Below are positions 16,595 to 29,324 of a stretch of 64,000 nucleotides of DNA, piece after piece. A program made the position numbers and the translations under genes. Each line of letters opens with the position of its first letter. The stretch's first letter is position 1. Under the pieces are notes generated by a model. It was not told where the DNA came from and did not search any database. It saw only the letters and a program-made list of their open reading frames with translations. This DNA is from a virus. Lineage: Duplodnaviria > Caudoviricetes. Location: IMG/VR virus record IMGVR_UViG_3300042477_000769; one strand, written 5' to 3'.

Positions 16595-17842
16595 ATGCAC
16601 ATTGAAGTAAGAGAAATTGAGCCGTGTAAATTATGCGTTCAGTATACTGCTGAACCGAGTGAAATATCAGATAAAAAAGAAGAGGTGGTTGCTCGCTTTA
16701 AAAAAGCGCCTGTCTCTGGATTTCGGACTGGAAAAGTTCCGACAGATGTTATCAAAATGCATTATCGTACCCAAATCGAAGATGCATTGAAAGTTGCTTT
16801 AGCTGAAGAGGCATATCATAATGCTTTATTCGAAAAAAAACTTCGACCTCATGGAGCACCGAAGCTAAATTCAGCTATTTTAGTAGATGGTAAATTTGTC
16901 TGTGAATTTGAAATGCATACTAAACCAGAATTTCAACTCATGACTTATGATGGTATGCAGATTCCTCGACCACATGAAGCCTTGACGGTGACGGAATTAA
17001 CTGAAAAAATGTTACAGGAATTACGAGTCAAATATGGCGATTCTGTACCCTATGCCGATAATGAATTTGTCCAAGTTGGAGATACTGTGATTGTAGATTA
17101 TGAAGGATCTATTAATGGTGAAGTATTGCCTCATTTGTCAGCCACTGGAGAAATGATTACAGTTGGCCATAGTAATTTGCCGCAATTTGATGACAATGTC
17201 TTAGGGATGTCTATTGGTGAAACTAGAGAATTTGATATTGTAGTACCGCAAAATAGCTTACCTTCTCTCAGTGGCAAAACTGTACATTTAAAAGTAACTC
17301 TTAATATGGGTTCTAAAAATGTACCTCATCCATTAGATGATACCTTGGGTCAAAAATTAGGCAAGAAAGACCTACAAGAATTAAGAATGGCCGTAGGCGC
17401 CACCGCGATGGCCACGGTAGAAAATAAAGTTAAGGAATCTATTAATGAAGCGGTAGCTATTAAATTAGTCGAGATGCATGAAATTAACGTTCCTAATTGG
17501 ATGGCTTTATCAGAAGCTCAATATTTAGTCCATGGTGCTAAATTAGATTGGAATGCTTTGAGAGATGAAGATAAAGATATGTATGTAGCCATGGCGGCTA
17601 AGAATGTTAAGCTATCTCTGATTCTAGATAGAATTAGAGATGATAACCCAGAGGCACAACTAACTGATCAGGAAGTATTTGATATGATTAAGAGAAATCT
17701 AATGCAATCTAATATGCAACAACCATTAGAGCAAGTAGTGCAGCAAATGCAAAAGAGCGGCTATTTACAAGTATTGTTTGCTCGAATTAGAGATGAGCAT
17801 GCGATGGATTTTGTGACTAAAAAAGTTCAACTTATTGATTGA
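16595..17842 (+). CDS. tig: trigger factor
   Basis: Ribosome-binding signature GFRTGKVP, FKBP-like GDTVIVDYEG..NGE, helical C domain; 415 aa. Confidence 0.92.
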   Translation: MHIEVREIEPCKLCVQYTAEPSEISDKKEEVVARFKKAPVSGFRTGKVPTDVIKMHYRTQIEDALKVALAEEAYHNALFEKKLRPHGAPKLNSAILVDGKFVCEFEMHTKPEFQLMTYDGMQIPRPHEALTVTELTEKMLQELRVKYGDSVPYADNEFVQVGDTVIVDYEGSINGEVLPHLSATGEMITVGHSNLPQFDDNVLGMSIGETREFDIVVPQNSLPSLSGKTVHLKVTLNMGSKNVPHPLDDTLGQKLGKKDLQELRMAVGATAMATVENKVKESINEAVAIKLVEMHEINVPNWMALSEAQYLVHGAKLDWNALRDEDKDMYVAMAAKNVKLSLILDRIRDDNPEAQLTDQEVFDMIKRNLMQSNMQQPLEQVVQQMQKSGYLQVLFARIRDEHAMDFVTKKVQLID

Positions 17843-19228: not shown

Positions 19229-22200
19229 ATGACTGACTTTGTCTCGTTACATAATCAGACGGATTTCTCTATTCTTGATTCTTTAATGTCCCCCAAAGCA
19301 CTCTTTAATCGAGCCAAAGAATTGGGCCAATCTGCAGTCGCAGTCACAGATCACGGCACACTAGCCGGAGCCTGGGATTCCTTAAAAGCTTCCCGAGAGA
19401 CTGGCGTTAAACTTATTATGGGCTGTGAAATCTACTTTGTAGAAGATGCCCAAAATATTACCGATAAATTTAGACATTTAACCCTGTTAGCTAAAAATGC
19501 TAATGGTTATAAGAACTTACTCACTCTCAATAAAAAGGGCTTTGATCAGGGCTCTTTTATTGGCAAGAGAGTATATCCTATTGTCGATTGGAAGTTGTTA
19601 GAACAATGTTATAACGGGCTAATTTGTCTCACTGGTTGTGGCAATGGAATCATTAGCCAATTATTAATGAATAAAAAGTTTGATGAAGTAGAAACTACTG
19701 TCCTGAAACTGAAACAGTTATTTGGAGATAATTTAGGCATTGAAATTCTTCCCAATAATATGAAGCGGGGCTCTAATATTTATAATGATGAAATTGATCA
19801 ACAATTTCTCAATATGAAGCTGATTAATTTGGGCAAAACACACAATATTAAAATTGTGCCCACCTGCAATGCTCATTATGTGAAGAAAGAAGATCATGAT
19901 ATTCATGATGTTTTTCTAGCTATTGGTTCTCATCAACCAAAATATTCTAATTTTAGAATTAAATATAATGTACCAGATTTTTATCTTAAATCTGCCGAAG
20001 AAGTTAAAAACTTCTTTGCTAGAAATCATGGCGAAGAATTAGCAGAAGAATGGTGTAATAATACGGTATATTTCGCCAATTTATGCGAAACTCCAGATTG
20101 GATTGACCCTAAATACTCTAATCCTTCTGGAAAAGAATTACCGATCTTCCCGGTCAAAGATGAGACAGATTATCCTGAATTTGTACACTGGCTGGAACTT
20201 CAACCGCCAGAAGTTAAATTATTAGATATTGATAAACAATATTTGAGATTTAAATGTCAAGCCGCTTTTTCCTCTCGTATTAAGGATTTATCTCCTGATA
20301 ATATGGAAAACTATCAACAGCGCTTGTTAGAAGAGCTAGATGTTATTGAATATCATGGCTTTTCTAGCTACATGTTAATTGTGGCAGATTATATTAATTG
20401 GGCTCGTCGTAATGAGATTGCCGTAGGAGAAGGTCGAGGCTGCCTCACGGGTGATACCCAAGTCTTAACTACTCAAGGATTTAAATTAATCAAAGACCTG
20501 TCTGTGACAGATACTGTGTTTAGTCATACTGGAAATATGAAAACTATTTCTAAATTATTTAAATTTGACGTATCCAATGAAAAATTATTAAAGTTTAAAA
20601 CACAGCAATCGTTTACGGACCTCACCATGACTTCGGATCATAAGGTGCTAATTGCTAAATCTCAAGATTTAGATAAATATTATTTTTACCCACCTAAAAA
20701 AGTTAAAGGTAAAATTAAAAGCTTTAATCCCCACTTGGAATGGGTGCCGGCTCACCAAATAAAAGTAGGAGATTATTTCTTTACTCCTAAATTAAATCGT
20801 TCCATTGACAACTTATCAGATATTGATCTTGCTCAATACAGCGACTCAATCATAGAAAATGATTTTATTGTCAGCAAAATTTACTTTACTAGCCCCCTCT
20901 CTTTACGCGCTTTACATAAAGTATCTCCAATCAGCTTTGAAAGTTTGAGAAAAATCAAAAATAACAAACCTATTGCTGATACACAAATTAATTTACTTCA
21001 ACAATACCTGTCTTCTACTGGGTCGTCTCTTCAAGATTTTGTCAATCATAAAAACTATAAATATAGCCGAATTCAAAGATTTATTAAAATTGATAATGAT
21101 TTCGCTTATTTATTAGGCCGATGGATCGGTGATGGATCCTTTCATGGAAATAAAGGGATTTCTATCTGTTTTAATAGTAAAGATATCGTAGGTCGAGAAA
21201 AAATAAAATCCTATCTCACTAAACTAGGATTTTATGTCTGCCAAGAAAATAGAAAAAATAATAATACCTTATTAACTGTTTCTAATAAGGCTATGTATTC
21301 TTTATTTAAAGAATTATTTCCGAATTATCATAGTTCTCAAACTAAACATATGCCAAATATTTTTCGTTTATTTTCTGATGAACTAATTCGTCATCTGTTA
21401 TTAGGATTATTAGAATCAGATGGTTGTGTTAATAATTATGAAAAAATAAAAACTACTAGCCAAACTTTAGCTCTGCAAGTAAAAGAAGCGTTAAATTATT
21501 TATCACTCCCCTCCTCTATTTATACAGAAGAAAACCCGAAAAGATATCAAGTAGCTACCTCTACTGCTTTTACCATTGCTTTTAATGGAATTAAAACTAA
21601 ACCTAATCCACATATCCACCGAACAAATCAAGGTTTTTATAGTAAAGTAGTTAGTATAGTGGAAACTACTGCTGATTTTGTCTATGATTTTACTGTTCCA
21701 GATGATCATAGCTATCTTACTACCAGTGGAATAGTTCATAATAGTGTAGGAGGCTCTTTAATTGCTTTCTTACTAGGAATTCATCAAGCAGACCCGATTA
21801 AGTATGATCTGATTTTTGCTCGATTTCATAATAAGGAGAAGAGCAGCTTTCCGGATATAGACACCGACTTCGCCCCCTCAGGTCGCGAAAAAGTCCAAGC
21901 CTATGTTCGCCAAAAATATGGAGAGGAACACGTAGCCCACGTCTCTAACGTTAATACTATTACCCCCAAGGTGTATGTTCGCGATATTGCGAGAGCCTGC
22001 GAATTAGGCGGCTCCAGAGAAGAAGCCGTTCGGATTGGTAATGATGTTGCCGATTGCATTCCATCAGATATTCATTCCATTGATGATGCGTTAGCTAAAG
22101 TTCCATTATTTGCTGAATATTGTAAAAAATATCCAGAATTAGAAAAGTATAAAAGCATTTGCGGAAAATATCGAGCTTGGTCTACTCATGCCGGAGGAAT

Positions 22201-23215
22201 TATTATTTCTGCCCGACCACTAACCGGATTAATTCCCCTGAGACGAGATAAAGATGGTGCCCTAGCTATTGAATATGATAAAGATAAAGCAGAAGAAAAC
22301 GGTCTAGTTAAAATGGATACTTTAGGTCTCTCCACTTTAGATATTATTGGAGAAACTTATCGTATTATTAAAGAACGCGGCAAAGAAGTGCCTCCCGATC
22401 AATTAGATTATGATGTTCATGATGCTCCTTCTTATGATTTGATTGCTAATGGCGATACCTTTTGCGTCTTTCAATTAGGGACTAGTGCTGGTACCGTAGA
22501 CTTATGCCGTCGAATTAAACCAGATAGTATCAATGATTTAGCCAATATTAATGCCTTGGCCCGACCCTCCGCTCGTGAGATGAGAAATGATTTCATTAAA
22601 ACTAAAAATGGAGGTAAGCCGGTTGCTTTATTGCATTCTAAATTAGCTCGAGCTTTTAATAGTACTTATGGCTTCGGATTATATGAAGAATGTTTAATGT
22701 ATCTGGCTCAAGATATTGCTGGTTGGAGCTTGCACTCAGCTGATAGATTAAGAAAATTAACTAAAGAAAAAGGTAAGAATCCTAAAAAGGTCCAACAATG
22801 GAAAGCAGAATTTATTGCTGATTCTGTTAAAATGGGCGTTCAAGAATTAATTGCTCAACGTATATGGAGTGAGGTAATTGAGCCTTTCCAGGGATATGGG
22901 TTCAACCGTTCCTTGTCCCTTTTTGAAATGATTGATATATATTCTAATGATGGTAGATTTATAAAGTCTAAACCTATAGGAGAAGTAAAACCAGGAGAAT
23001 ATGTGCGTTCACGAGATGAAGCTACTCAAAAAGAGATTTTTGTCGAAGTAAAGGCGAATCATGATCATGGTATTTTACCTTTAGTAGAGGTAGAATTAGA
23101 AACCGGCGAAACAGTCAAATGTACTATGGATCATAAGTTTAGAATTCAAGAAAATAAAGAGATGGTGCCATTATGGCAAATCTTAAGAGACAATTTATCA
23201 ATAGTGTTAGGTTAA
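19229..23215 (+). CDS. dnaE: DNA polymerase III alpha (DnaE) N-terminal part, with one cis intein and a C-terminal split-intein N-half
   Basis: PHP (LHNQT, TDHG), GRG|SVGGSL, FPDIDTDF, KMDTLGL, LYEE, FQGYGFNR. Confidence 0.95.
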   Translation: MTDFVSLHNQTDFSILDSLMSPKALFNRAKELGQSAVAVTDHGTLAGAWDSLKASRETGVKLIMGCEIYFVEDAQNITDKFRHLTLLAKNANGYKNLLTLNKKGFDQGSFIGKRVYPIVDWKLLEQCYNGLICLTGCGNGIISQLLMNKKFDEVETTVLKLKQLFGDNLGIEILPNNMKRGSNIYNDEIDQQFLNMKLINLGKTHNIKIVPTCNAHYVKKEDHDIHDVFLAIGSHQPKYSNFRIKYNVPDFYLKSAEEVKNFFARNHGEELAEEWCNNTVYFANLCETPDWIDPKYSNPSGKELPIFPVKDETDYPEFVHWLELQPPEVKLLDIDKQYLRFKCQAAFSSRIKDLSPDNMENYQQRLLEELDVIEYHGFSSYMLIVADYINWARRNEIAVGEGRGCLTGDTQVLTTQGFKLIKDLSVTDTVFSHTGNMKTISKLFKFDVSNEKLLKFKTQQSFTDLTMTSDHKVLIAKSQDLDKYYFYPPKKVKGKIKSFNPHLEWVPAHQIKVGDYFFTPKLNRSIDNLSDIDLAQYSDSIIENDFIVSKIYFTSPLSLRALHKVSPISFESLRKIKNNKPIADTQINLLQQYLSSTGSSLQDFVNHKNYKYSRIQRFIKIDNDFAYLLGRWIGDGSFHGNKGISICFNSKDIVGREKIKSYLTKLGFYVCQENRKNNNTLLTVSNKAMYSLFKELFPNYHSSQTKHMPNIFRLFSDELIRHLLLGLLESDGCVNNYEKIKTTSQTLALQVKEALNYLSLPSSIYTEENPKRYQVATSTAFTIAFNGIKTKPNPHIHRTNQGFYSKVVSIVETTADFVYDFTVPDDHSYLTTSGIVHNSVGGSLIAFLLGIHQADPIKYDLIFARFHNKEKSSFPDIDTDFAPSGREKVQAYVRQKYGEEHVAHVSNVNTITPKVYVRDIARACELGGSREEAVRIGNDVADCIPSDIHSIDDALAKVPLFAEYCKKYPELEKYKSICGKYRAWSTHAGGIIISARPLTGLIPLRRDKDGALAIEYDKDKAEENGLVKMDTLGLSTLDIIGETYRIIKERGKEVPPDQLDYDVHDAPSYDLIANGDTFCVFQLGTSAGTVDLCRRIKPDSINDLANINALARPSAREMRNDFIKTKNGGKPVALLHSKLARAFNSTYGFGLYEECLMYLAQDIAGWSLHSADRLRKLTKEKGKNPKKVQQWKAEFIADSVKMGVQELIAQRIWSEVIEPFQGYGFNRSLSLFEMIDIYSNDGRFIKSKPIGEVKPGEYVRSRDEATQKEIFVEVKANHDHGILPLVEVELETGETVKCTMDHKFRIQENKEMVPLWQILRDNLSIVLG
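20441..21742 (+). other. cis intein with LAGLIDADG endonuclease (434 aa) in dnaE at GRG|S
   Basis: C1 CLTGDTQV, block B MTSDH, LLGRWIGDG and LLGLLESDG, C-terminal VYDFTV...GIVHN then Ser+1. Confidence 0.93.
22910..23212 (+). other. split intein N-fragment (101 aa), Ser1
   Basis: SLSLFEMI block A, block B KCTMDHKF, ends at the stop codon. Confidence 0.85.
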
Positions 23216-23216
23216 A

Positions 23217-24431
23217 ATGGGAAATGTCAGCAAACCAATAGATTATTATCTTCAAAAAATTCCAGAACCATTTAGATCAAATGTTTCTTTAATGGAAGAC
23301 TATCAAGGTAATAGAACTAAAATATCTTTTAATTTTTCATGTGGGTGTCAGATACAAGAACAATTTAAGGTTTTTCTTAAGAGGCCGCGATTTGATTTTT
23401 GCACCTCATGTGCTAAGAAAAATAGTCAAACTTATAGTTGTCAGTATTGCTGTCAAGAATTTACTGTGCAACGACATTTGGAAAATTGTCAGCAAAAATG
23501 CCAAAATAAATATGCACAACTCATTTTGGGTACAGATTATGTAATTTGCCAGATTTGTAATTTACATGCAAGAAGTCTAGGGGCACATGTTACTAAGAAG
23601 CACAATATATCTCATAAAGAATATCGTGAAAAATATGGAAGTTTAATTTGCACTGAGGCTTCTAAAAATTATAAAGAAAGCGGTCAATATAATAGAGAGT
23701 GGATTACTCGTGCTCATTTAAATGGCACAGATTTAACCGAATATAGAAAAAAGTTATCTACAGCTGTTAAAGAGGCAATAATGTCAAATCCGGAAGAACG
23801 AAAAAGACGTTCCGAGTTAATGGCTACTATTAATAAAACAGAGAATATGCGGATTAAATCTTCTAAATCGGCCAAAATAACCTCTGCTAAACCAGAAATT
23901 TTAGAAAAAAGAACTAAGCAATTACAAAAATGGAGAGAAGAAAACCCAGAGTTATTTTATAACCAATGTACCGCTCCAATGATTAAATCATTTCAAAGTA
24001 AACCAGAAAGAATATTATTTAATTATTTCTCGCAATTAAAACCTTTTAATTTTAAAAGAAACCAATTTATAAAATCTAAGTATTTTACTAATTTTTCTAA
24101 GAAGAAACAAGTAGATATAATTGATTTGGATAATAGAATTTATATAGAGTTTGATGGTAAAGTTCATTTTAAGCCTATTTTTGGCGATTCTGTTCTCTTA
24201 AAAACTAAATTAAGAGATCAAGAATTAGAAAAAGTTATTACATCTAACAATTGGATTCTAATTAGAATTAGCTACGATCAATTTGTTTATACTACTAAAA
24301 ATATTAATAAAATTAAACATGATGCATCTTATTTCAAACCAGAAAGCCTTCAACAAATAGAAGCAATACTTAAATCAAAGCAACCAGGTGTTTACAAAAT
24401 CGGAGAGGCATATAATAGCTCAAAATCATGA
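23217..24431 (+). CDS. free-standing Vsr/DUF559-like homing endonuclease between the split dnaE halves
   Basis: Zinc fingers (CQICNL..LGAHVTKKH), basic repeats, C-terminal QVDI......IEFDGKVHF...RDQ......ILIRIS; ATGA overlap with the next gene. Confidence 0.8.
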   Translation: MGNVSKPIDYYLQKIPEPFRSNVSLMEDYQGNRTKISFNFSCGCQIQEQFKVFLKRPRFDFCTSCAKKNSQTYSCQYCCQEFTVQRHLENCQQKCQNKYAQLILGTDYVICQICNLHARSLGAHVTKKHNISHKEYREKYGSLICTEASKNYKESGQYNREWITRAHLNGTDLTEYRKKLSTAVKEAIMSNPEERKRRSELMATINKTENMRIKSSKSAKITSAKPEILEKRTKQLQKWREENPELFYNQCTAPMIKSFQSKPERILFNYFSQLKPFNFKRNQFIKSKYFTNFSKKKQVDIIDLDNRIYIEFDGKVHFKPIFGDSVLLKTKLRDQELEKVITSNNWILIRISYDQFVYTTKNINKIKHDASYFKPESLQQIEAILKSKQPGVYKIGEAYNSSKS

Positions 24432-25666
24432 CTAATATTAAAACTATTAAATACATTGGCAATCATGCTACGTGTGATTTGGAAGTAGATCATCCGGATC
24501 ATCAATTCTACTTATCGAATGGAATGTTAACCTCAAACTCTCATGCGGTCTTATATTCCATGACCAGTTATAAGACTTCTTATTTAAAGGCCCATTATCC
24601 GGTTGAGTTTTTATTGGCTAATTTAATGGCCGAAGTAAAATCTAATGCTCCAGATGCAGGGAGTAATATCAATAAAATTAAGAAAGAATTAAAAGCACAC
24701 AAGGTTAAGATTTCTCCTCCGGATATTAATTCGTCTAATTTGACTTATACTATTTCTGAAGGTAATAAATTATTAACCGGTTTAGATTCTTTAAAATTCG
24801 TGGGAGACGATGCGATTAAAGATATTATTCAAAAACGTCCTTTCAAAAGCTTTTTTGATTTCATGCATCGAGTGGATTCCAAAAAAGTCAGAGCTAATAG
24901 TATTCAAGCCTTAGCGGCAGCTGGTGCCTTAGAAAAATTTGGTATCCCTAGAAAGCTTATTTTCTTATATTGTTCAGATTTTAGAAAGAAATTACAAGTT
25001 TGGTTAAAGAAACATGACCCTCAACAAGAAGAGTTTATTTATCCTTGGCCTTCGGAACCGGATTGGTCATTGTCAGAACAATATGCGTTAGAGCAATATT
25101 ATTTAGGAGAATCTTTTATTTGTAAAGCGCCTGAGGCGTATGGTAAGTTTTTCAAAAGCCCTCATCATGTTATTTATGAAATTAAAAAAGCTAACAACAA
25201 AACCAAGATTTCGCCCATTAAAGGAATAGTTAAAGATTTCTTCGAATTCAAAGTTAAAAAAGAGACAAGTAGTTATTATGGTCAATCTATGGTGAAAGCT
25301 ATTATTGAAGATAAAGAAGGAGACCAATGCTCTTGTACTATTTTTCCAGATCGTTGGCAATTAATACAGAAACGATTAAAAGAATTAAATAGCAAAGCTA
25401 TATTTGATGTTGGCTTGGCTTTAAGTTTTTCTGGCAGTGTTAATACTTATGAAGATGAAGTTGGCATTATTTTAGAAGAATTATTAGATATTTCTCCAAT
25501 TCCAGCTTTACCTACTGATTTAAAAGCCAAGCGAGTCAATTTAAAGGAAGCTAAATTAAAAAATAAAGAGCCGGTGACTGAGGCGAAAAATGTTTTGGAT
25601 GAAATTGAAGATTTATTATATGATGAGGGTCTAATTGATTTAGATACCGATCCGGATAACGATTAA
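24428..25666 (+). CDS. dnaE: DnaE C-terminal part preceded by a 37-aa split-intein C-fragment (24428-24538)
   Basis: MTNIKTIKYIG...TCDLEV...HQFYLSNGMLTSN|SHAVLYS..SYKTSYLKAHYPVEF; PPDINSS, HhH region, OB-fold tail. Confidence 0.93.
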   Translation: MTNIKTIKYIGNHATCDLEVDHPDHQFYLSNGMLTSNSHAVLYSMTSYKTSYLKAHYPVEFLLANLMAEVKSNAPDAGSNINKIKKELKAHKVKISPPDINSSNLTYTISEGNKLLTGLDSLKFVGDDAIKDIIQKRPFKSFFDFMHRVDSKKVRANSIQALAAAGALEKFGIPRKLIFLYCSDFRKKLQVWLKKHDPQQEEFIYPWPSEPDWSLSEQYALEQYYLGESFICKAPEAYGKFFKSPHHVIYEIKKANNKTKISPIKGIVKDFFEFKVKKETSSYYGQSMVKAIIEDKEGDQCSCTIFPDRWQLIQKRLKELNSKAIFDVGLALSFSGSVNTYEDEVGIILEELLDISPIPALPTDLKAKRVNLKEAKLKNKEPVTEAKNVLDEIEDLLYDEGLIDLDTDPDND

Positions 25667-25743
25667 TTATAATAATTGCGCGGTGATATATTACTCTAGT
25701 AATCCTAGAATAATTAGAGCGATCGTTGACCTAAGGAAAAATA

Positions 25744-26547
25744 ATGAAATGTATATCGTGTGAAATTGAAATCAATCCTAAATGGGCGCATGCTATTGAT
25801 GTTAATATTTGCCCCTTTTGTGGGCAACATATTATGGAGGAGCATTTAAAAAACTTATTTGGCTCATTGCGTCAAACCATGGAAAGTTTAGTTGCTTATC
25901 CAGAAGCATTAAATGACTGGATGTTATCTAATTACTCGTATATTAAAACGGATTCGGAAGACATCATTAAATATGTACCTAAAGATCTAATTAAAAACAG
26001 TCATTATCATGCGGCTTCTGATCGAAAAGACTCTCAAAAATTCACGGTTAAAGTGGCCACCGAGCAAGGAGAGGAAGAGGTCATGGTAGAGAAGATTCAG
26101 CCAGAAGAAAAAACCAATGACTTTTTTAAGAGAGCGGAAGTAATTAAGCATAATGTGTTGCCGGCCGAAAAAACTCAGCATTTAAAAGCTTTAGCTCAAC
26201 AAATTAAAAAGGCAGGATCTCAAGGACTAACGACTAGCAATCACAACATGGTATTATCTCCAGAATTAATGGAAAATGCTGATCCAGAGGCCATTGCAGA
26301 ATATCAGCAATTAGTTTCTAATAATATGATTGGGTCATCCATTACTTCTAATGATTTAGATAGTGATGATTTGCCGGGAGGCGATTTTATTTTGCAAGCT
26401 AATTTAATGGCAGCGGCTACCAAAAATGGTAATAATAGAGATGGTGCTAATGCTAAAGATTTAGCCGCTTTGCAAAAAATGCAAGCTGGATTATCAGAAT
26501 CCAGAAAAAATTTGCTAACTGGCGCGAAAGGGTCTTTTCGTCGATAA
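25744..26547 (+). CDS. hypothetical protein with N-terminal zinc ribbon
   Basis: CISC...CPFC. Confidence 0.7.
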   Translation: MKCISCEIEINPKWAHAIDVNICPFCGQHIMEEHLKNLFGSLRQTMESLVAYPEALNDWMLSNYSYIKTDSEDIIKYVPKDLIKNSHYHAASDRKDSQKFTVKVATEQGEEEVMVEKIQPEEKTNDFFKRAEVIKHNVLPAEKTQHLKALAQQIKKAGSQGLTTSNHNMVLSPELMENADPEAIAEYQQLVSNNMIGSSITSNDLDSDDLPGGDFILQANLMAAATKNGNNRDGANAKDLAALQKMQAGLSESRKNLLTGAKGSFRR

Positions 26548-26932: not shown

Positions 26933-27436
26933 ATGAGCCATACAGTAAGACTTGGTGATTTTTTAGGGACAGAATTAGAAGAAGATTTTATTAATTTTGA
27001 TTTTACCGAAATACAGAAAGTATTAACACATTTACAAGAGACAGATGCTTTGGACTTAGTTCATGCCGAGTTTTTACAACAGCAAGCGTTGCGAGGAGCG
27101 GATATTGTTTCTGAATATCTCGGCAAGATTATTAAAACAGTTGGATATTTAGAGGCTAAAGTTAATAGAACTAAAAATAAAGTCTCTTTAGAATATAAAG
27201 CTCCGGATGGAGAGCGAACTACTTTAGACATGAAAAAATGGGCCGGAGAGTCTTCTCTAGAGGTAGAAGAGGTTCAGATTAAATTAGCCAAAGCTAAAGC
27301 TTCTAAAATTGTATTGGAAAAAAAATATGATATTCTGATTAGAAGTCATCATCACTATAAAGATATTGCTCAGGGATTAAGAAGAACTGTCTTAGGATAT
27401 AATTCTACTACTAAAATTCCCGAAGGATATGAGTAG
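26933..27436 (+). CDS. coiled-coil protein, possibly a UvsY-like recombination mediator
   Basis: Size, helical pattern and position directly before the RecA/UvsX gene; function is an inference. Confidence 0.45.
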   Translation: MSHTVRLGDFLGTELEEDFINFDFTEIQKVLTHLQETDALDLVHAEFLQQQALRGADIVSEYLGKIIKTVGYLEAKVNRTKNKVSLEYKAPDGERTTLDMKKWAGESSLEVEEVQIKLAKAKASKIVLEKKYDILIRSHHHYKDIAQGLRRTVLGYNSTTKIPEGYE

Positions 27437-29324
27437 AATTGCTAAATTAACTGATGCTATCTTAGATGCTCGACTCCCATCTTCCATTAAAAGAATAGAT
27501 TCAGTCATTACTGCTAAAACAAAAATTACTTTTCAATGCGCACTATGTGATTATCAGTGGCTAGCTAAACCTGATAATATCTTGCATGGCAAAGGCTGCC
27601 CAGCCTGTGCCAAGTCGCTCCCTTTATCTAATGAAATTGTAGACCAACGTTTACTAGGTCGGCCGACGCAAAGAGTCGGAGACTATATTAATAGTCGAAC
27701 TAAAATCTGGTTTAGTTGCAAAAAGTGTCATTATCAATGGTTAACCACCCCACATACTATCTTAATTGATCAATGTGATTGCCCCAAATGTCACAAGTTA
27801 AGAAAAAACGAAACACTAATTAATGATCTATTGATTAACTTAAATATTAAGTTTGAAACTCAAAAAGATATTCGGGCTTTTAATAATCAAGAAGTTAACA
27901 AATATTATGTTGATTTTTATGTGCCAGAGTTGCGTTTAATTATTGAATATAATGGTCATCAGCATTATGCTCCCGTTCGTTTTGGTAATAGATCGCTAGC
28001 TAAGTCAACTCAAGCCTTTCAAAAACAACAAATTAGAGATAATTATCTTCGGTCTTTTTGCTTTAATAATAACCTGAATTTATTAGAAATTGATGGCCGA
28101 CGGTATTATTCAAATAAATTAACCACGTATTTAACAAAATTACTAACTGATATAGAAGGAAGCATGAAAAATTACGATTCTTTTTTTAAAACATACTCTG
28201 ACAACGAAGAACAATTAGACTTTAAAATGGCGCATGAAACGGTAGGAGAAAAGCTACCCGTTATTTCAACGGGATCATTTATTTTAGATGATGCTTTATC
28301 TTCTGGAGGATTGCCAGAAGGCAGACTCATTCAATACTATGGCGCTCCGGGTAGTGGTAAAACCTTATTAGCCATGTTAGCTATTAAGGAAGCTCAGCAA
28401 CAAAATCCTTCAGCAGACCAGGTATTTATTGATGCGGAACAGACGTTTTCGCCTACTTGGGCAGAATCTCTAGGATTAGATACTTCTCGTATTATTTTGA
28501 TTCAAGGCGATACGGCAGTCAATGGTCGTAAATGTTTTGAAATGTTATTAGGGGTACCGAAAGAAGATGTGAGAACGCATACCTTAAAAGGTCAGGCTAA
28601 AGATGGTTTGTTAGATAAGGTGGCGAATAAGGAGTTTGATATTAATTTGATTGTGCTGGACTCGTTGGGCTCTATTATTCCCCCCGGAGAAGACATCTCC
28701 GCCGTTGGCAAAATGAACATCTCCCTCCTAGCCCGCTTCTTAACCACCACCTTCCGCAAGCTATCTTTAGCTCTTTCTAAAACCAATTGCCCATTAATTA
28801 TCATTAATCATAAGAAAACCAGCATGGATCCTTATGGTTCCGATCATACTTTTTCTGGTGGCAATACTTATGCTCACTTCTTGAGTGCTAACGTCTATTT
28901 TGAACCTGTCAATCGGGCTGATGCTAAAATTTTAGATGAAAAAGAAAACAAAATTGGGCAAACCATTCGAGCTACGATCGAAAAGTCTAAATTTGGTCCT
29001 TGGCCACGCAAGTGTGAATTTAAAGTAGATTTTGGTATTGGAGTCATTGATAAGCATGAAGAAATTGCCACCTTAGCTTTAGATTATAATGTAGTGCAAA
29101 AACCCACTAGTGTGACTCATGAATATGGAGAGCGAAAATGGGTTGGTTTTGCTAAGTTTTGCGAAGCTATTCAATCTGATGGTGAGTTAGCGGCAGAATT
29201 ATTAGCTAAGATTAATCATGCTCGAGATTCTAAGTTAGAAACTAAGAGATTAGAGCAAGAAGCTAAAAAAGCCGAAAGTTTAGAGAAGGCTGGAAAATCG
29301 AAAAAAGGTAAAAAAGATGACTGA
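27429..29324 (+). CDS. recA: RecA/UvsX-like recombinase (from about 28164) fused in frame behind a 245-aa zinc-ribbon plus PD-(D/E)XK homing endonuclease
   Basis: RecA: STGS..LD.AL..GGLP.GR, GAPGSGKT, FIDAE, VLDSL, IINH, SGG; N-part: four CxxC and VDFY....IIEYNGHQHY. Confidence 0.9.
   Translation: MSRIAKLTDAILDARLPSSIKRIDSVITAKTKITFQCALCDYQWLAKPDNILHGKGCPACAKSLPLSNEIVDQRLLGRPTQRVGDYINSRTKIWFSCKKCHYQWLTTPHTILIDQCDCPKCHKLRKNETLINDLLINLNIKFETQKDIRAFNNQEVNKYYVDFYVPELRLIIEYNGHQHYAPVRFGNRSLAKSTQAFQKQQIRDNYLRSFCFNNNLNLLEIDGRRYYSNKLTTYLTKLLTDIEGSMKNYDSFFKTYSDNEEQLDFKMAHETVGEKLPVISTGSFILDDALSSGGLPEGRLIQYYGAPGSGKTLLAMLAIKEAQQQNPSADQVFIDAEQTFSPTWAESLGLDTSRIILIQGDTAVNGRKCFEMLLGVPKEDVRTHTLKGQAKDGLLDKVANKEFDINLIVLDSLGSIIPPGEDISAVGKMNISLLARFLTTTFRKLSLALSKTNCPLIIINHKKTSMDPYGSDHTFSGGNTYAHFLSANVYFEPVNRADAKILDEKENKIGQTIRATIEKSKFGPWPRKCEFKVDFGIGVIDKHEEIATLALDYNVVQKPTSVTHEYGERKWVGFAKFCEAIQSDGELAAELLAKINHARDSKLETKRLEQEAKKAESLEKAGKSKKGKKDD

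Follow-up and report, generated by a model that had tools for sequence, protein, structure and literature searches.

A fractured dnaE gene of an uncultured giant phage, with a probable Ser1/Ser+1 split intein and a Vsr-like endonuclease gene between the intein halves

In a 64,000-nucleotide stretch of viral DNA (IMG/VR virus record IMGVR_UViG_3300042477_000769; Duplodnaviria, Caudoviricetes), to which we refer as the window, the polymerase gene dnaE is broken in two. We propose that the break holds a mobile cassette that combines a class-1 split intein, which has serine as its first residue (Ser1) and is followed by serine as the first residue of the C-extein (Ser+1), with a free-standing homing endonuclease gene of the Vsr-like (EDxHD) type. 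We consider this explanation very likely; splicing and DNA cleavage are activities that we infer for the family from sequence. The fractured dnaE belongs to an uncultured giant phage, and the window is without a close cultured relative. Neither blastn with positions 22000-26000 nor tblastn with the endonuclease found relatives at the DNA level in the phage collection. As a kind of system the locus is already known: its layout has been published, and its family is large.

Structure of the fractured locus

All parts of the locus lie on the + strand. The first open reading frame (ORF), dnaE-N, runs from 19229 to 23215 and encodes 1328 amino acids (aa). Its N-extein sequence comes in two pieces. 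The first (19229-20440; PHP domain and the start of the polymerase core; Pfam PHP and DNA_pol3_alpha) ends in ...VGEGRG, and the second (21743-22909; polymerase core and fingers; Pfam DNA_pol3_alpha and DNA_pol3_finger) ends in ...FQGYGFNR. Directly after GYGFNR stands Ser1 of the N-terminal intein half (IntN), 101 aa encoded by 22910-23212 (SLSLFE...TMDH...NLSIVLG) and closed by a TAA stop at 23213-23215. IntN is matched by NCBIfam NF007079, and a profile built from IntN sequences matches Npu DnaE IntN. Besides Ser1, its marks are HDH at positions 51-53, Cys71 and the block B residues T72-M-D-H75. A single base (23216) separates the stop from the ATG (23217) of the endonuclease gene, which encodes 404 aa (23217-24431) and is recognized by PHROG 559, Pfam ROS_MUCR, the 42 homologues found and a structure match. 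Its TGA (24429-24431) overlaps the ATG of dnaE-C (24428) by 4 nucleotides (nt), as ATGA. The C-terminal intein half (IntC) consists of 37 aa (24428-24538), matches Npu DnaE IntC end to end as well as NCBIfam NF005616, and has D17 in block F and ...NGMLTSN37 in block G (Asn codon 24536-24538). Ser+1 at 24539 opens the C-extein (24539-25666; SHAVLYSM...), which includes an HHH_6 domain (Pfam HHH_6) and matches unbroken DnaE proteins. An earlier reading of this DNA, made from the letters without database searches (the sequence-only reading), had described a fractured dnaE with a Ser1/Ser+1 split intein around a free-standing Vsr-like endonuclease, and its coordinates and junctions proved exact.

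Between the two N-extein pieces lies a second intein (20441-21742; residues 405-838 of dnaE-N), of the cis-splicing type. It is 434 aa long, runs from Cys1 to HN/Ser+1 with the junctions GRG/CLTGD and IVHN/SVGGS, and contains a LAGLIDADG homing endonuclease domain (Pfam Hint, Intein_splicing, LAGLIDADG_3). The sequence-only reading had noticed this intein too and had counted three junction events in the making of one enzyme. A cis and a trans intein are indeed combined in one polymerase, but the splicing reactions number two, one in cis and one in trans. Only some close relatives have the cis LAGLIDADG intein; their N-halves are ~1328-1369 aa long with it and ~893-905 aa without.

Deletion of both inteins in silico gives a DnaE of 1168 aa. 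This product aligns with the unbroken DnaE of locus L002 over residues 1-1168 (78% identity) and with that of locus L004 over residues 3-1168 (77% identity), and at neither intein junction is there a gap. The motif GYGFNRSHA, which splicing had been claimed to restore, is present in a product that is colinear with unbroken DnaE.

Could the stop at 23213 be a sequencing or assembly error within a contiguous intein? The two halves are in the same frame, as the insert of 1215 nt is a multiple of 3, and some relatives have contiguous mini-inteins. However, across the nuclease gene the dnaE frame contains 57 stops, and no single sequencing error can account for the break. Moreover, an intact and conserved ORF of 404 aa occupies another frame of the insert, and the same layout is seen in many independent assemblies. 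We regard the idea of an error as refuted by the 57 stops and give it practically no credence.

Distribution of the family

Scanning IMG/VR with dnaE-C, we obtained 20 loci. In 11 of them dnaE is unbroken, the C-extein being 53-75% identical, and some of these contigs are 176-433 kilobases long. The matches in these 11 loci (the empty-site alleles L002-L008, L010 and L012-L014) begin exactly at residue 38, which is the first extein residue. Besides the window, seven loci (L009, L011 and L015-L019) have the layout of IntN, endonuclease and IntC. In one more (L020) the gene is split without an endonuclease, and a 104-nt spacer lies between the IntN and IntC genes. Contiguous inteins exist as well. 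Ser1 mini-inteins of the same family occur in unbroken DnaE (P0161, P0167, P0173), a Cys1 intein with an HNH domain occupies the same site in L021, and the DnaE of Rhodococcus phage NiceHouse has a Cys1 mini-intein there (FNK/CLAKD...LTHN/SHAVAY). In the high-GC viral contigs L016-L019 dnaE has two or three breaks, all with a split intein of their own and most with an endonuclease gene.

At the protein level, C-halves with this IntC make up 109 clusters in a collection of 5.8 billion proteins. IntC is exactly 37 aa long in 103 of these clusters, and all 109 have the ending (T/S)SN/SH. Matches to the N-half (n = 30), to which the unbroken P0161, P0167 and P0173 belong, have Ser1 in 29 cases and Cys1 in one. 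When a profile was searched against 1.84 billion representatives, 1101 proteins were found at E <= 1e-3 and 179 at E <= 1e-10. Of the callable junctions in the best 150 representatives, 52 have Ser as residue 1, 49 have Cys and 14 have Thr; most of these inteins are split.

A fractured gene might also simply be a dead gene. The endonuclease insertion would then have killed dnaE, and another polymerase would replicate the phage. The window and its relatives come from giant phages with large replication modules, and the related loci L016-L019 have two or three breaks in one dnaE. Against this, both halves are full length, are 53-78% identical to unbroken homologues and have no frameshift or internal stop, and the arrangement persists in more than 100 diverged clusters with the intein motifs intact. 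Judged from the dnaE halves and their relatives, a dead dnaE is very improbable in our view.

The same intein is also found outside phages. A scan of bacterial genomes revealed contiguous mini-inteins of this family in chromosomal dnaE, at the same FNK/SH site, in Thiocystis minor DSM 178 (L024), Thiorhodospira sibirica (L033), a metagenome-assembled genome (MAG) of Methylomarinum (L034), Allochromatium warmingii DSM 173 (L040) and a MAG of Thiomargarita (L041). They are 143-192 aa long, have Thr1 and read GFNK/TL...HDHG...CTLDHKW...CCSN/SHSAAY; common to them are HDHG and YDLEVDHPEHNF...CCSN/SH. Thr is rare as the first residue of an intein. It is also seen in ~14 phage representatives. The inteins of the bacteria, of NiceHouse and of L021 share the site and the block F/G signature with the intein of the window, but they are single polypeptides spliced in cis, whereas that of the window is split.

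In a further group of sulfur-bacterial and methanotroph dnaE genes (L022, L026, L028, L029, L031, L032 and L036) the frame is open for at least 240 codons upstream of an IntC-like part, and this open stretch reads like an out-of-frame translation. Such sequences would fit a contiguous intein within which an endonuclease gene is overprinted in a different frame.

Catalysis and splicing

What speaks for class-1 chemistry is the set of conserved residues. A nucleophile as first residue, TxxH in block B, Asp in block F, a terminal Asn and a nucleophile at +1 are all present, which covers the catalytic positions of class 1. Across nine loci D17, N37, S+1 and H+2 in IntC and at its junction, and H51, C71 and H75 in IntN, are invariant. 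His75 is found in 159 of 159 family sequences; at position 72, 131 of them have Thr and 28 have Ser. With the exception of a few junctions whose call is ambiguous, Ser, Thr and Cys are the only residues at position 1.

Further evidence comes from covariation. Among 153 IntN sequences of the family, position 53 is His in 85 of 86 members with Ser1 and in 14 of 15 with Thr1 (99 of 101 combined), as against 3 of 52 with Cys1. The Cys1 members mostly have Asn at this position, and Npu DnaE has Arg50 there. Of all columns, position 53 shares the most mutual information with residue 1 (0.72 bit); position 56 ranks second, with Leu or Ile accompanying Ser1 and Thr1 and Lys accompanying Cys1. Among Cys1 sequences, the three with His53 are those closest to Ser1 sequences, which fits recent switches of the nucleophile. 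Such covariation supports the view that Ser1 is the working nucleophile, as far as can be judged from an alignment.

A histidine termed 'NX' has been reported as specific to Ser1 inteins (Pasch et al. 2023, PMC10189870); the residue before it is a Lys or Arg, which pairs with an upstream Glu. The consensus of our family is [KR]50-H51-D-H53-G with an invariant Glu37, while the window itself has Asn50. The [KR]50-H51 pair with Glu37 would fit the description of the NX motif, yet it is His53, not His51, that follows the nucleophile. Our search of the literature found no report of a catalytic role for Arg50 of Ssp/Npu DnaE, the equivalent of His53.

Might the first nucleophile be an internal cysteine instead? 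Cys71 (23120-23122) stands just before the block B Thr and is kept, irrespective of the first residue, in 157 of 159 members; the corresponding residue of Npu DnaE is Ala. One could imagine a branched thioester route as in class-3 inteins, with Cys71 rather than Ser1 attacking first. The hallmarks of class 3 are absent, however: B:12 is Phe and not Trp, and F:4 is Asp and not Cys. On sequence we rejected class 3 for these two reasons. In addition, position 1 is limited to Ser, Thr and Cys and covaries with His53, and the homologous Npu intein, with Ala in place of the cysteine, splices by the class-1 route. We think a Cys71 route has only a very slight chance of being correct. Whatever Cys71 does, it matters for applications. 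The sequence-only reading had rightly counted one non-junction Cys in each half (Cys71 in IntN, Cys16 in IntC) and had recommended the pair for thiol-free ligation. It is not a Cys-free intein, and since Cys71 is so widely kept it may not be dispensable for such use.

A structural prediction concerns the meeting of the two halves. The predicted IntN-IntC complex scores 0.70, and the highest-scoring of 3 controls reaches 0.01. The mark applied to this score is reached by 51 of 78 solved complexes and by 2 of 108 mismatched pairs. Contacts agree by at least 94% between runs, and the partner's predicted local distance difference test (pLDDT) value is at least 77. In the model an acidic strand of IntN (LVEVELE) lies against the basic start of IntC (NIKTIKY). 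As the complex of Npu DnaE is already solved, the prediction shows likeness and not binding. In our proposal the halves would associate and ligate the exteins.

It might be asked whether association is all that they do. The intein halves could have lost splicing and serve as a dimerisation device that holds the DnaE pieces together without a peptide bond. The fragmented NrdA of Aeh1 is reportedly assembled by interaction domains and would be a precedent for such non-spliced assembly. The break in the window lies between fingers and HHH domain, where a non-covalent joint might be tolerated; splicing is read from the sequence only; and fractured genes without working inteins do exist, as in the SbcD-like locus (PMC2677866). 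On the other side, Ser, Thr or Cys at position 1, T72, H75, D17, N37 and Ser+1 are conserved far beyond what binding needs, and the covariation of residue 1 with His53 is sensible only if residue 1 is a nucleophile. We therefore find mere dimerisation unlikely, although somewhat less so than a dead gene or a Cys71 route.

If trans-splicing does take place, the following course can be suggested. The three ORFs would be expressed together. They share a strand, the first junction being a gap of 1 nt and the second an overlap of 4 nt, and the + strand shows no terminator-like site after 20385, so that they are probably co-transcribed and translationally coupled. DnaE-N-IntN and IntC-DnaE-C would associate through pairing of LVEVELE with NIKTIKY, as in the 'capture and collapse' of Npu DnaE, and the halves would fold into one HINT domain that splices in trans by oxyester chemistry. 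Ser1 would undergo an N-O acyl shift, aided by Thr72 of block B, by His75 and probably by the dyad His51-Asp-His53. Transesterification by Ser+1 would follow. Asn37 would then cyclise without a penultimate His, as Npu DnaE does, and an O-N shift would give ...GYGFNR-SHAVLY.... With the upstream LAGLIDADG intein spliced out in cis as well, the DnaE of 1168 aa would result. Meanwhile the endonuclease would spread the cassette by cutting alleles that are free of it.

Several observations weigh against the proposal of a class-1 split intein in a mobile cassette, and we will mention them together. For all members of the family, splicing and cleavage rest on conservation and homology. The near-invariant Cys71 is assigned no part in the suggested splicing chemistry. 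The spacer of 1 nt is without a significant 5' hairpin (fold of 23160-23250, z -0.32), unlike the fractured genes described before. The penultimate residue is Ser36 and not His, although Npu DnaE, a fast splicer ending in ASN, is likewise without a penultimate His; hence the penultimate Ser, which had been presented as a peculiarity, is not one. The covariation has its own weakness. A tree of IntN, built on ~100 columns, gives only 2 pairs on supported branches and is too weak to demonstrate phylogenetic independence of the covariation; the best tree implies 14 changes of nucleophile and 11 changes at position 53. Finally, IntN scores under the cut-offs of generic intein hidden Markov models (TIGR01445, 20.3 against 24.5; Pfam Intein_splicing, 20.8 against 35.8). 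The specific match to the Npu/Ssp DnaE inteins, by contrast, is strong. When intein models were searched, as the sequence-only reading had suggested, NF007079 and NF005616 were the best NCBIfam matches.

The public gene call for the C-half of this contig (P0109; 380 aa, 24524-25666) begins at Met33 of IntC (MLTSNSH...) and is without most of IntC. With a truncated gene call on one side and generic models below their cut-offs on the other, standard annotation would miss this split intein.

The endonuclease and its target

The 404-aa protein has a Cys-rich zinc-finger region at about residues 40-141, with a Ros/MucR-like finger at 105-141, a helical part at ~146-258 and a nuclease domain at ~259-398 (nt 23991-24410). 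Among 33 homologues D300, E311, D313, G314 and H317 are invariant, and D334 is kept in at least 90%. The spacing of D300, E311, D313, H317 and D334 fits the Vsr-like motifs (D51, H69 and D97 in Vsr), a correspondence that is by sequence spacing only.

The structural model agrees with this assignment. AlphaFold2 modelled the protein with a pLDDT of 89.8. Compared by VIA-align, residues 259-398 resemble Vsr (1cw0: Z 12.4, root mean square deviation (rmsd) 2.7 over 118 aa; 1vsr: Z 11.7), the catalytic domain of I-Bth0305I (3r3p: Z 10.8, rmsd 2.7 over 96 of 97 aa), and the DUF559 protein NGO0050 (3hrl: Z 10.8). Foldseek, given the full 404-aa model, found nothing at E <= 1e-3; the likeness to Vsr and I-Bth0305I was seen only by VIA-align, with the same candidates. 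A phmmer search of the endonuclease against the Protein Data Bank (PDB) found a weak match to a Ros zinc finger only, and NCBIfam had no match for it. By its predicted structure the endonuclease belongs to the Vsr-like/EDxHD family of PMC2677866 and PMC3239194.

I-Bth0305I (PMC3239194, PDB 3R3P), the prototype of the EDxHD homing endonucleases, can be compared by architecture. Both proteins consist of two parts, of which the N-terminal one binds DNA and the C-terminal one is a nuclease of the Vsr fold that has conserved acidic and His residues. I-Bth0305I, however, is encoded by an intron in recA and has NUMOD and helix-turn-helix modules, whereas the endonuclease of the window has a gene of its own between the intein halves and contains Cys-rich zinc fingers, one of them Ros/MucR-like. 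By phmmer there is no sequence match between them.

At this site, each of the seven fractured loci has an endonuclease homologous to that of the window, with 30-48% identity that roughly follows the divergence of the exteins. This suggests that intein and endonuclease have travelled together for a long time. No similarity to the dnaE endonuclease was detectable in the endonucleases at other dnaE fractures or, by BLASTP, in the one fused to recA in the window.

What would the endonuclease cut? Two suggestions can be made. The target may be the empty FNK/SH site, in which case the intein would home along with the endonuclease. Alternatively, in line with the gene-breaking model of Dassa et al., alleles with a contiguous mini-intein may be cut. 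In 10 of the 11 empty-site relatives (L002-L008, L010, L012 and L014) the residue at -1 is Val, Met or Leu (GFNV/SH, GFNM/SH, GFNL/SH). Only L013 among them has Lys there, while the Lys of FNKSH is otherwise near-universal; intein-bearing alleles have mostly Lys or Arg at -1 and occasionally Gln, Asn, Ala or Leu. Judging from these residues, the alleles with Val, Met or Leu may be variants of the target that resist cleavage.

Comparison with known systems

Among solved inteins, the closest relative is the DnaE split intein of cyanobacteria. For each half alone the best solved relative is Ssp/Npu DnaE (IntN, E 2e-4; IntC, E 2.5e-3, the alignment spanning Npu IntC from end to end). A profile of nine IntN sequences matches Npu entries of the PDB at E 1.4e-13 and Ssp at 3e-9, and no other intein is found in the 60 best PDB matches to it. 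The best NCBIfam models are NF007079 for IntN (positions 818-868 of 876) and NF005616 for IntC plus extein (positions 1-60 of 449), which we take to be models of the cyanobacterial split DnaE halves. N-halves of the cyanobacterial type (P0278 and P0281; FAEY/CL) score within the range of the more distant FNK-site members.

With Ssp and Npu DnaE (PDB 1ZD7, 2KEQ, 4KL5, 4LX3) the intein of the window shares the host protein, the split point in the HINT fold and the lack of a penultimate His (ASN there, TSN here). The halves are of similar size, ~102 + 36 aa there and 101 + 37 aa here. The differences are several. The insertion site, as had been correctly stated, is FNR/SH and lies 4 residues downstream of the cyanobacterial EY/CFNKSH. 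Ser1 and Ser+1 take the place of the nucleophiles Cys1 and Cys+1, and position 53 is His instead of Arg50. Here the halves are adjacent, with the endonuclease gene between them, whereas in cyanobacteria they are encoded at different places on the chromosome. Over its first ~40 residues IntN does not align with Ssp/Npu DnaE. The cyanobacterial C-extein CFNKSH is said to have been reported by Wu, Hu and Liu in 1998.

Sequence comparison thus identifies the phage intein as a specific homologue of the cyanobacterial DnaE split intein, with a different allele site and the same split point of the fold. The sequence-only reading had concluded from the shifted site that the split was independent. This cannot be maintained in that form, as both halves match Npu/Ssp DnaE best and are divided at the same point of the fold. 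One splitting event and two splitting events would both be compatible with the data. The split point is also the canonical site of endonuclease insertion, and convergence is therefore possible.

The layout as a whole was described by Dassa, London, Stoddard, Schueler-Furman and Pietrokovski in 2009 (PMC2677866), whose fractured genes include the loci DnaE-1, DnaE-2 and DnaE-3. In common with the window, these have DnaE as host, an N-terminal host part with IntN, a free-standing Vsr-like endonuclease and IntC with the C-terminal host part on one strand, and the 3' end of the endonuclease gene overlaps that of IntC. Their DnaE-1 has an additional in-frame intein upstream, as here, and their DnaE sites, too, differ from the cyanobacterial one; their sources include phage-like ones from fresh and marine waters. 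The differences concern the spacer (27-51 nt with an RNA hairpin there, 1 nt without a significant hairpin here), the overlap (6-69 nt there, 4 nt here) and the first residue, as that paper names Cys1 among the catalytic residues and the window has Ser1.

Split inteins with Ser1 and Ser or Thr at +1 already serve as tools: Neq Pol, Aes123 PolB1/CL, PolB16 OarG and LCGC14 PolB2 (PMC10189870, PMC12707363, PMC11923092). They share with the intein of the window a natural split and oxyester chemistry with Ser1 and Ser/Thr+1, which for the window is putative. They sit in polymerases of the PolB type; the host here is DnaE, and the intein is a sibling of Npu DnaE with C71 and C16. For these reasons the pair is not new in the sense in which it had been announced. 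Its DnaE layout dates from 2009, its family is abundant, cis versions exist in cultured bacteria, and Aes123 PolB1, PolB16 and LCGC14 PolB2 are in use with Ser1 and Ser/Thr+1.

Efficient split inteins without a catalytic Cys are nevertheless rare and sought after. Those characterised to date all come from PolB (PMC10189870, PMC12707363), and a library of 34 inteins (PMC7090010) does not mention DnaE. In a limited search of the literature we found no paper that describes a Ser1 DnaE split intein.

Neighbouring genes

About 1.4 kilobases upstream of dnaE, at 16595-17842 on the + strand, is a full-length homologue of trigger factor (Trigger_N, FKBP_C, Trigger_C). An ORF of ~418 aa for such a homologue also lies upstream of dnaE in most related giant-phage loci with sufficient flank.

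Downstream, an ORF of 631 aa (27429-29324, + strand) combines two DUF4379 zinc fingers and a DUF559/Vsr-like nuclease (about residues 1-245) in frame with RecA/UvsX (about residues 246-631). Its nuclease part belongs to PHROG 559 and 9084, 'homing endonuclease'. This ORF is either a homing endonuclease gene that runs into recA without a stop or a true fusion.

Implications of the hypothesis

Within one dnaE family of giant phages the site is seen empty, with a contiguous intein, split with an endonuclease and split without one, which makes up a complete life cycle of a fractured gene. Sulfur bacteria and methane oxidisers have the same intein, in its cis form, in their chromosomal dnaE.

A more speculative suggestion, which we consider possible but doubtful, is that the phage family is a natural, near-isogenic series of Ser1, Thr1 and Cys1 inteins. 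Two positions would set the choice between oxyester chemistry (His53 with a hydrophobic residue at 56) and thioester chemistry (Asn53 with Lys56), and the cyanobacterial split dnaE would descend from a fractured-gene cassette of phages that had lost its endonuclease. If true, this would be a recipe for making inteins of the Npu/Cfa type cysteine-independent; such a conversion may be possible because the cyanobacterial DnaE split intein has its closest relative in this family.

Whatever the outcome for that suggestion, the signature of His53/Leu56 as opposed to Asn53/Lys56 is a testable rule for what Ser1 chemistry needs, and through its Ser1/His53 signature the cassette is a lead for both mechanistic work and engineering. 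A large DnaE-borne family of Ser1/Ser+1 inteins, sister to Npu DnaE, would provide many candidates for protein engineering.

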